In this document: in pieces, positions 59,828 to 60,256 of the stretch
How the letters are laid out: every line of letters begins with the position of its first letter
How positions within the stretch are numbered: position 1 is the first letter of the stretch
Assembly (NCBI RefSeq): GCF_054482595.1
Contig: NZ_CM137008.1
Length of the DNA stretch: 64,000 bases
Reading direction: 5' to 3' (one strand)
The notes under the pieces: model-generated
Told to the model about the DNA's origin: nothing
The model's input: the letters and a program-made list of their open reading frames with translations, nothing else
Databases searched by the model: none
Translations under genes and position numbers: made by a program

Positions 59828-60205
59828 ATAAAGTGCCCTTTTAGTTATTGTTCATATCCCTGTGTTAGCAACAAAAAAAATAAAATGACACACAAGACCA
59901 GCTAATGTATTTATATATTTTTCACATAAACTTATTTGTTCTCAATCAACAACAACTGTTATTACAGGTCACTTTCAATATTTTATTAAACTAACATTTT
60001 TAGCACAGATGAATTCATCATCAACAAATTCACTATATGGATAATATCCATTCAACGCATATGATTTATGATTTTATTAGTCTGAGTTATTTTTGTAGGG
60101 CTATATTTAAAATCAATAAACTCCACCGATTCAGATTAATATCAGCAATAGAAAGATAGGAAATCACCAATTCAATAACATCATCAATGAAACATATTGT
60201 AGAAT

Positions 60206-60240
60206 TAATTTAAACAAGGCGTTCCATTCAACCAGAACGC
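60206..60240 (-). terminator. Putative intrinsic terminator downstream of ybbP
   Basis: Hairpin ggcgttc...gaacgcc just 3' of the ybbP stop, followed on the minus strand by a T-rich run (ttgttt). Confidence 0.45.
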
Positions 60241-60256
60241 CCCTTATTTACTCTCA

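Follow-up and report, generated by a model that had tools for sequence, protein, structure and literature searches.

The 429-bp gap between ybbP and rhsD, at positions 59828-60256 of the 64-kb stretch of DNA that was analysed (the window), is very probably the H-NS-silenced 5' control region of an RhsD toxin island. The same spacer has already been described for E. coli K-12, and the H-NS occupancy, the in vitro binding of RNA polymerase, the lack of a wild-type transcription start site (TSS), the derepression and the bicyclomycin-sensitive read-through that we discuss below all come from the literature on the K-12 allele. The composition of the gap, its density of promoter-like sites, the boundary of the island, the single copy, the lack of a gene within the gap and the low polymorphism were observed directly in this work.

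The spacer and the RhsD cassette

The gap lies between the stop codon of ybbP and the ATG of rhsD, both genes being on the minus strand (Table 1). ybbP, which bounds the region, belongs to the core genome, and the gene controlled by the spacer is the rhs core gene, which carries the RefSeq label rhsD in genomes with 100% identical sequence. An AT-rich noncoding gap with A/T tracts and no open reading frame (ORF) of 60 aa or more had been marked at these coordinates in an earlier note, and the description proved exact: the G+C content of the spacer is 28.4%, compared with 51.8% for the whole window and 60-65% for the flanks, nine runs of A or T reach 4 nt or more, and the biggest ORFs inside the gap encode 40, 29, 27 and 26 aa. 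The contrast that the note had drawn with the rest of the window holds in part; the spacer has the lowest G+C among all 429-bp stretches of the window, but such a gap is not unique, as a second long AT-rich gap of similar length is found in the divergent folD/sfmA spacer at 26161-26597. The folD/sfmA spacer is promoter-dense, with 32 sites in a position weight matrix (PWM) scan, and matches the published promoter-island entry 557105_351 folD/sfmA (PMC3661553). Within the 64-kb window, no copy of the ybbP-rhsD spacer was found elsewhere or upstream of other rhs genes, and no similarity to the rest of the window could be detected.

Table 1. Features of the ybbP-rhsD spacer and of the genes on either side, in window coordinates.
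Feature	Coordinates	Strand	Basis and remarks
ybbP	60257..62671	-	ORF, 804 aa; NCBIfam NF041854 equivalog, 1458 bits; ABC transporter permease subunit
Hairpin of 11 pairs with six G-C/C-G in its core, then UUGUUUAAAUUAAUU	60243-60216	-	Folding; candidate intrinsic terminator of ybbAP
AT-rich core, K-12 promoter island 522099_304	59909..60212		PMC3661553 Table 1, mapped via the K-12 ybbP end at 522054
CTAAAAA	59997..60003	-	A5 run (59997-60001) is a recurrent 1-bp deletion site, K-12 coordinate 523086
Predicted promoter TTAATA-17-TGTAAT	59961..59989	-	PMC3946193 table, found in the window sequence; leader ~127 nt; no variation in nine strains
Top-scoring sigma-70-like site on the rhsD strand, TTGAGA-17-AAAAAT	59917..59945	-	PWM scan; no variation in nine strains
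T8 homopolymer	59873..59880	-	46-53 nt upstream of the ATG; T9 in K-12, shorter in some strains
Shine-Dalgarno-like AAGGG	59836..59840	-	8 nt upstream of the rhsD ATG (59827)
rhs core gene	55625..59827	-	ORF, 1400 aa; PAAR-like N-terminus

The gap is the E. coli ybbP-rhsD spacer and is 99.8% identical to that of K-12, the sole difference being a T8 run in place of T9 in one homopolymer. It was found, over at least 80% of its 429 bp, in 2868 of 5426 complete E. coli genomes, about half, at an identity of 98.4-100%, and it is single copy as a rule, occurring in 1-2 places per genome at most. In genomes without rhsD, homology to the window ends at 60251 or 60247, that is 6-10 nt past the ybbP stop, and restarts at 54153, beside mnmH. 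The position at which homology stops indicates that the spacer and the hairpin that follows ybbP belong to the ~6-kb RhsD cassette and not to the ybbP flank.

In E. coli, any one of three cassettes is found at the ybbP-mnmH junction (window 54153-60251; loci L003, L004, L006 and L007). In one alternative to RhsD, a dinQ-like gene for a type I toxin adjoins mnmH and is accompanied by REP elements; in the other, several DUF2931 genes accompany an Hcp-toxin fusion of 2004 bp, annotated tssD. The sequence after ybbP is different in each of the three cassettes. We considered the spacer as a remnant of the dinQ/REP or the Hcp-ET cassette and rejected this, as only 10-11 nt chance matches were obtained. 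At the mnmH-proximal end of the RhsD cassette, a fragment of an IS481-family transposase (135-aa ORF, ylbG-like) is located at 54231-54638.

The C-terminal tip of rhs (window 55625-56324) matches the downstream orphan fragment of K-12 (ylbH region; L001 11265-12702) at 94%, and the K-12 RhsD tip is missing in this strain together with its ybbC gene. Judged by these matches, it looks as if the main gene had recombined with the orphan, an event that would give a protein of 1400 aa here instead of 1426 aa. In K-12, TSSs have been mapped within the AT-rich 3' parts of rhs genes, at 526492 before ybbC and at 527354 before ybbD; the latter corresponds to window ~56145 on the minus strand, inside the rhs 3' end and ~500 nt before the gene at 55153-55644, which encodes 163 aa. 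We suggest that the presumed immunity genes are transcribed from their own promoters and do not depend on that of rhsD, which is silent.

The hairpin at the ybbP end of the spacer begins 13 nt past the stop codon, in a 68-nt stretch whose folding energy is -17.1 kcal/mol (z = -2.6 against shuffles). It is the only terminator-like hairpin in the spacer, and the U tract that follows it is broken up (UUGUUUAAAUU). A terminator hairpin for ybbP had been predicted at this place, and the hairpin is indeed there; for termination itself, no RNA 3' end of ybbP is listed at the hairpin in the K-12 3'-end supplements, and expression is low. The hairpin is a plausible ybbP terminator, at the level of a predicted candidate. 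It is specific to the RhsD cassette and is not a conserved part of the ybbP flank. In strain AL.H8, an IS1 is found 42 bp past the ybbP stop, just beyond the hairpin, with the junction at window 60215, and rhs is absent along with most of the cassette, which suggests an IS1-associated deletion.

Relatives of the gene were collected by a search with the first 200 aa of Rhs, at one genome per species, which gave 36 loci. Upstream of the 35 relatives of the Rhs N-terminus in other species no nucleotide similarity to the spacer was found, and in alignments with rhs loci of other genera similarity is first seen near the ribosome-binding site and the ATG. The two closest Rhs N-termini, those of Pseudocitrobacter faecalis (94%) and of a metagenome scaffold (96%), have the end of vgrG 81 bp and 67 bp upstream of the rhs ATG, respectively. 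The locus is therefore akin to the vgrG-rhs operons of T6SS effector islands, since its Rhs N-terminus is 94-96% identical to proteins encoded directly behind vgrG, but it differs from them in that vgrG is absent, and in E. coli the AT-rich stretch fills the position held by vgrG in other genera. A decayed vgrG was also considered as the origin of the spacer and rejected, as tblastn of VgrG (from loci L009 and L008) against the spacer returned no match at E = 10. The metagenome scaffold (L008, JALHET010000378.1) is 3.5 kb long, contains the C-terminus of VgrG and the N-terminus of Rhs, and belongs to a Lentisphaerae MAG bin; it is probably enterobacterial DNA that was mis-binned.

Promoter-like sites and H-NS silencing

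A position-weight scan detected 29 sigma-70-like sites in the spacer, compared with a window mean of 5.8 per 429 bp, a ~5-fold difference that puts the spacer among the two densest places of the window. The dense hexamer pairs are found on both strands of the AT-rich core, which Panyukov and Ozoline listed in 2013, as 522099_304 ybbP(+)/rhsD(+), among 78 promoter islands of K-12 and flagged as foreign DNA (PMC3661553). The spacer and the listed island are the same object, the K-12 allele being the list entry: it extends over at least 300 bp in which predicted start points are unusually dense on either strand, and the K-12 literature reports RNA polymerase bound to it and little full-length RNA. 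Dense predicted starts, RNA polymerase binding with little productive transcription, H-NS occupancy and an association with foreign genes are common to promoter islands (PMC3661553). The window allele differs from the listed island in its T8 run, and the density is matched by base composition alone, with 13 -10-like hexamers in the spacer against 14.3 +/- 4.0 in composition-matched shuffles. As there is no excess, the promoter density is a by-product of AT richness and does not constitute a separate signal. In the supplements searched of a 2024 eLife study of 25 promoter-island fragments, there is no mention of the locus.

The proposal of the earlier note that the rhs promoter lies in this gap agrees with K-12 data. 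Shimada et al. found a genomic-SELEX peak of RpoD holoenzyme between ybbP and rhsD, overlapping an H-NS SELEX peak, and the promoter that they predicted under it, TTAATA-17-TGTAAT, is present in the window at 59989-59961 (PMC3946193). The top-scoring site of our own scan on the rhsD strand has a predicted start near 59910, which would give a leader of ~83 nt. Mapping of start sites, one of the checks proposed for the gap, agrees with silence in the K-12 wild type, where Kim et al. list no TSS between 519490 (ybbP) and 526492 (PMC3415461, supplement 2). As the published conditions examined gave no mapped TSS in the spacer, the promoter position is a prediction, and either hexamer pair may be the one that drives rhsD.

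Silencing is also supported by data on H-NS itself. In K-12, the spacer is scored 'A', meaning H-NS-bound in all ChIP studies compared, in a secondary table and not as raw ChIP data (PMC3661553 Table 1). In the RNA-seq data of Srinivasan et al., which compare the K-12 wild type with an hns stpA mutant, the logFC is -7.15 for rhsD (p 8e-88), -8.44 for ybbC, -8.29 for ylbH, -10.2 for ybbD and -4.95 for ylbG, and only -0.93 for ybbP (PMC4288151, supplement 3). The rise of rhsD in the mutant is therefore ~140-fold (2^7.15), against 2^0.93-fold for ybbP, and because rhsD and the downstream genes are derepressed and ybbP barely so, the boundary of derepression is the spacer. Some of the RNA-seq increase seen for the AT-rich genes further downstream could stem from spurious internal promoters and not from the spacer. 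The earlier suggestion of an H-NS-type silencing region, for which ChIP data had been named as a check, is thus well supported by the K-12 allele, which combines occupancy in vivo with a derepression that spares the neighbouring core gene; the window sequence itself has the high A+T content and the variable, acquired character of such regions.

No good match to the high-affinity nucleation motif TCGATAAATT was found in the spacer, only two matches with 2 mismatches each, and over the window the number of motif matches is at chance level (63 against a shuffle mean of 62.5). A high-affinity nucleation motif is not required for H-NS binding. Curvature had been put forward as a further check and was not borne out, as AA/TT dinucleotides in the spacer show no helical phasing at 10-11.25 bp above Markov controls, and there is thus no evidence of phased curvature. 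The spacer resembles the loci under xenogeneic silencing by H-NS and StpA (bgl, proU, the T6SS clusters of EHEC and Salmonella) in being AT-rich acquired DNA upstream of a toxin gene and, according to the K-12 data, in being bound by H-NS and strongly derepressed in hns stpA, with a contribution from Rho. It differs from them in lacking both the nucleation motif and phased curvature, and in that the body of the silenced rhsD gene is GC-rich (60-70%), so that the AT-rich target comprises only the spacer and the gene's 3' tip.

In light of these data, we propose that the spacer has three parts along the minus strand. The hairpin after ybbP comes first, probably ending ybbAP transcription. Over the next ~300 bp, of 72% A+T, overlapping sigma-70-like hexamers allow RNA polymerase to bind, and H-NS, with StpA, coats this DNA in vivo; the last part is a short leader with the rhsD ribosome-binding site. 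During ordinary growth the H-NS filament would hold the promoter or promoters silent, and Rho would halt part of the little transcription that approaches rhsD. Once H-NS and StpA are removed, as in the K-12 mutant, expression of rhsD and of the immunity and orphan genes behind it rises more than 100-fold, with ybbP barely changed. H-NS presumably acts in this arrangement by occluding or trapping polymerase and by aiding Rho.

Rho, conservation and alternative readings

Rho-dependent termination at the rhsD end of the spacer was absent from the earlier note, as was the fact that the spacer in its entirety forms part of the acquired island. Adams et al. describe a Rho termination region in K-12 with its score peak at 523279, 19 nt into rhsD (score 5.35, p 1.8e-6), and upstream/downstream coverage of 445/7 without and 558/47 with bicyclomycin (PMC7815308, supplement 2); these values are for 800-nt windows and do not place the termination site precisely. 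From this it could be argued that transcription attenuation is the primary control, with Rho ending transcripts from ybbAP or from the spacer in the untranslated AT-rich leader or at the start of rhsD, and with H-NS serving mainly as a roadblock that helps Rho. The 5.35-fold increase of read-through with bicyclomycin, the drop from 445 reads in the 800 nt upstream to 7 downstream and the ybbP hairpin with no listed 3' end all fit this reading, but even in the presence of bicyclomycin only 47 of 558 reads pass, compared with the ~140-fold effect of losing H-NS and StpA. The composition of the transcript also argues against it. A canonical Rho utilisation site is C-rich, G-poor untranslated RNA, whereas the sense RNA of the spacer is C-poor (C 6-15%) with G exceeding C in nearly every 78-nt window, so that no such site was recognised in it. 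We therefore regard attenuation as unlikely to be the primary control, although Rho is a possible contributor, of ~5-fold, to silencing by H-NS. Work on bridged H-NS filaments suggests that an H-NS roadblock may help Rho in this role.

The conservation of the spacer was investigated in nine strains that cover the full range of spacer identity, with 700 nt at the end of ybbP and 700 nt at the start of rhsD as flanks. Substitutions were found in 2.6% of the spacer columns, against 13.7% of third codon positions in ybbP and 16.7% in rhsD, and pairwise diversity is 0.008 in the spacer and 0.050 at third positions of ybbP; polymorphism in the spacer is thus 5-6 times below that of the flanking third codon positions. 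No variation at all was seen among the nine strains in a stretch of 113 bp (59994-59882) that includes the two candidate promoters. The low polymorphism suggests constraint, as judged from nine sequences only, and recent spread of the cassette, or gene conversion that inflates rhsD diversity, could add to the contrast.

Several changes within the spacer have been recorded. The T homopolymer expanded from T9 to T10, at -46 of rhsD, in the laboratory strain of a phage-resistance study, and the 1-bp deletion at K-12 coordinate 523086 was fixed in 4/4 lines selected for motility in rich medium and was neutral on reconstruction. Strain 24AR0357 carries a 113-bp insertion in the spacer at a CTAA target (window 60003-60000). 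We take the ends of this insertion (GGAAGGTGCGAATAAG ... CTTATTCGCACCTTCC) to be the IS5 terminal inverted repeat, and the insertion looks like a miniature IS5-derived element within the H-NS-bound region.

The polymorphism 5-6 times lower than that of the flanks and the invariant core around the candidate promoters have led us to consider that the spacer might be a selected, conditionally opened lock, in which H-NS and Rho would form a double lock and a binding site for a hypothetical counter-silencer would make rhsD expression respond to a signal, for instance T6SS activity or contact between cells. We consider this version quite improbable. To our knowledge, neither a counter-silencer nor an inducing signal is known for the rhsD spacer.

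The opposite reading is that acquisition of the island left the spacer behind as a passive junction, AT-rich filler that attracts H-NS and polymerase by its composition and has no selected function. Its promoter-like hexamers are as numerous as in composition-matched shuffles, it has no specific H-NS motif and no A-tract phasing, the close Rhs relatives in other genera do without it and have vgrG 67-81 bp upstream instead, and both IS1 and the IS5-ended element have inserted without obvious harm. Against this stand the reduced polymorphism (pi 0.008 against 0.050 in ybbP) and the 113-bp invariant stretch, together with the need of rhsD for some promoter and the coincidence of the derepression boundary with the spacer, and we find a purely passive junction very doubtful.

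Finally, an independent gene for a small RNA or a short peptide, for which the earlier note had left room, is extremely improbable in the gap and found no support here: one candidate, a 29-aa ORF at 59905-59994 (+), encodes a hydrophobic peptide and is intact and identical in 9/9 strains, but lies inside the invariant stretch, so that its conservation is uninformative on coding, and although promoter-like sites are present on both strands of the spacer, an Rfam search of 59300-60800 (E up to 10) gave three noise matches only, to eukaryotic and viral families, no Shine-Dalgarno-like sequence precedes any ORF of at least 10 aa on either strand, 5/9 strains have altered forms of the 40-, 27-, 26- and 24-aa ORFs, no second terminator was found besides the post-ybbP hairpin, no TSS falls in the spacer in the K-12 wild type (PMC3415461) and the RefSeq records listed have no feature annotated under the spacer.

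Implications for rhs silencing in E. coli

The value of the H-NS-silenced control region described here is mainly confirmatory, in that a xenogeneic silencing region was recognised from raw sequence and was borne out by the K-12 literature. The additions are modest: both the spacer and the post-ybbP hairpin move as part of the RhsD cassette, one of three alternatives at this variable site; E. coli has the spacer where other genera have vgrG; and conservation is higher in the spacer than at the neighbouring synonymous-type sites. We know of no natural signal that has been established to lift the silencing of the orphan rhs toxin genes of E. coli, and the spacer would offer a defined place in which to look for it.
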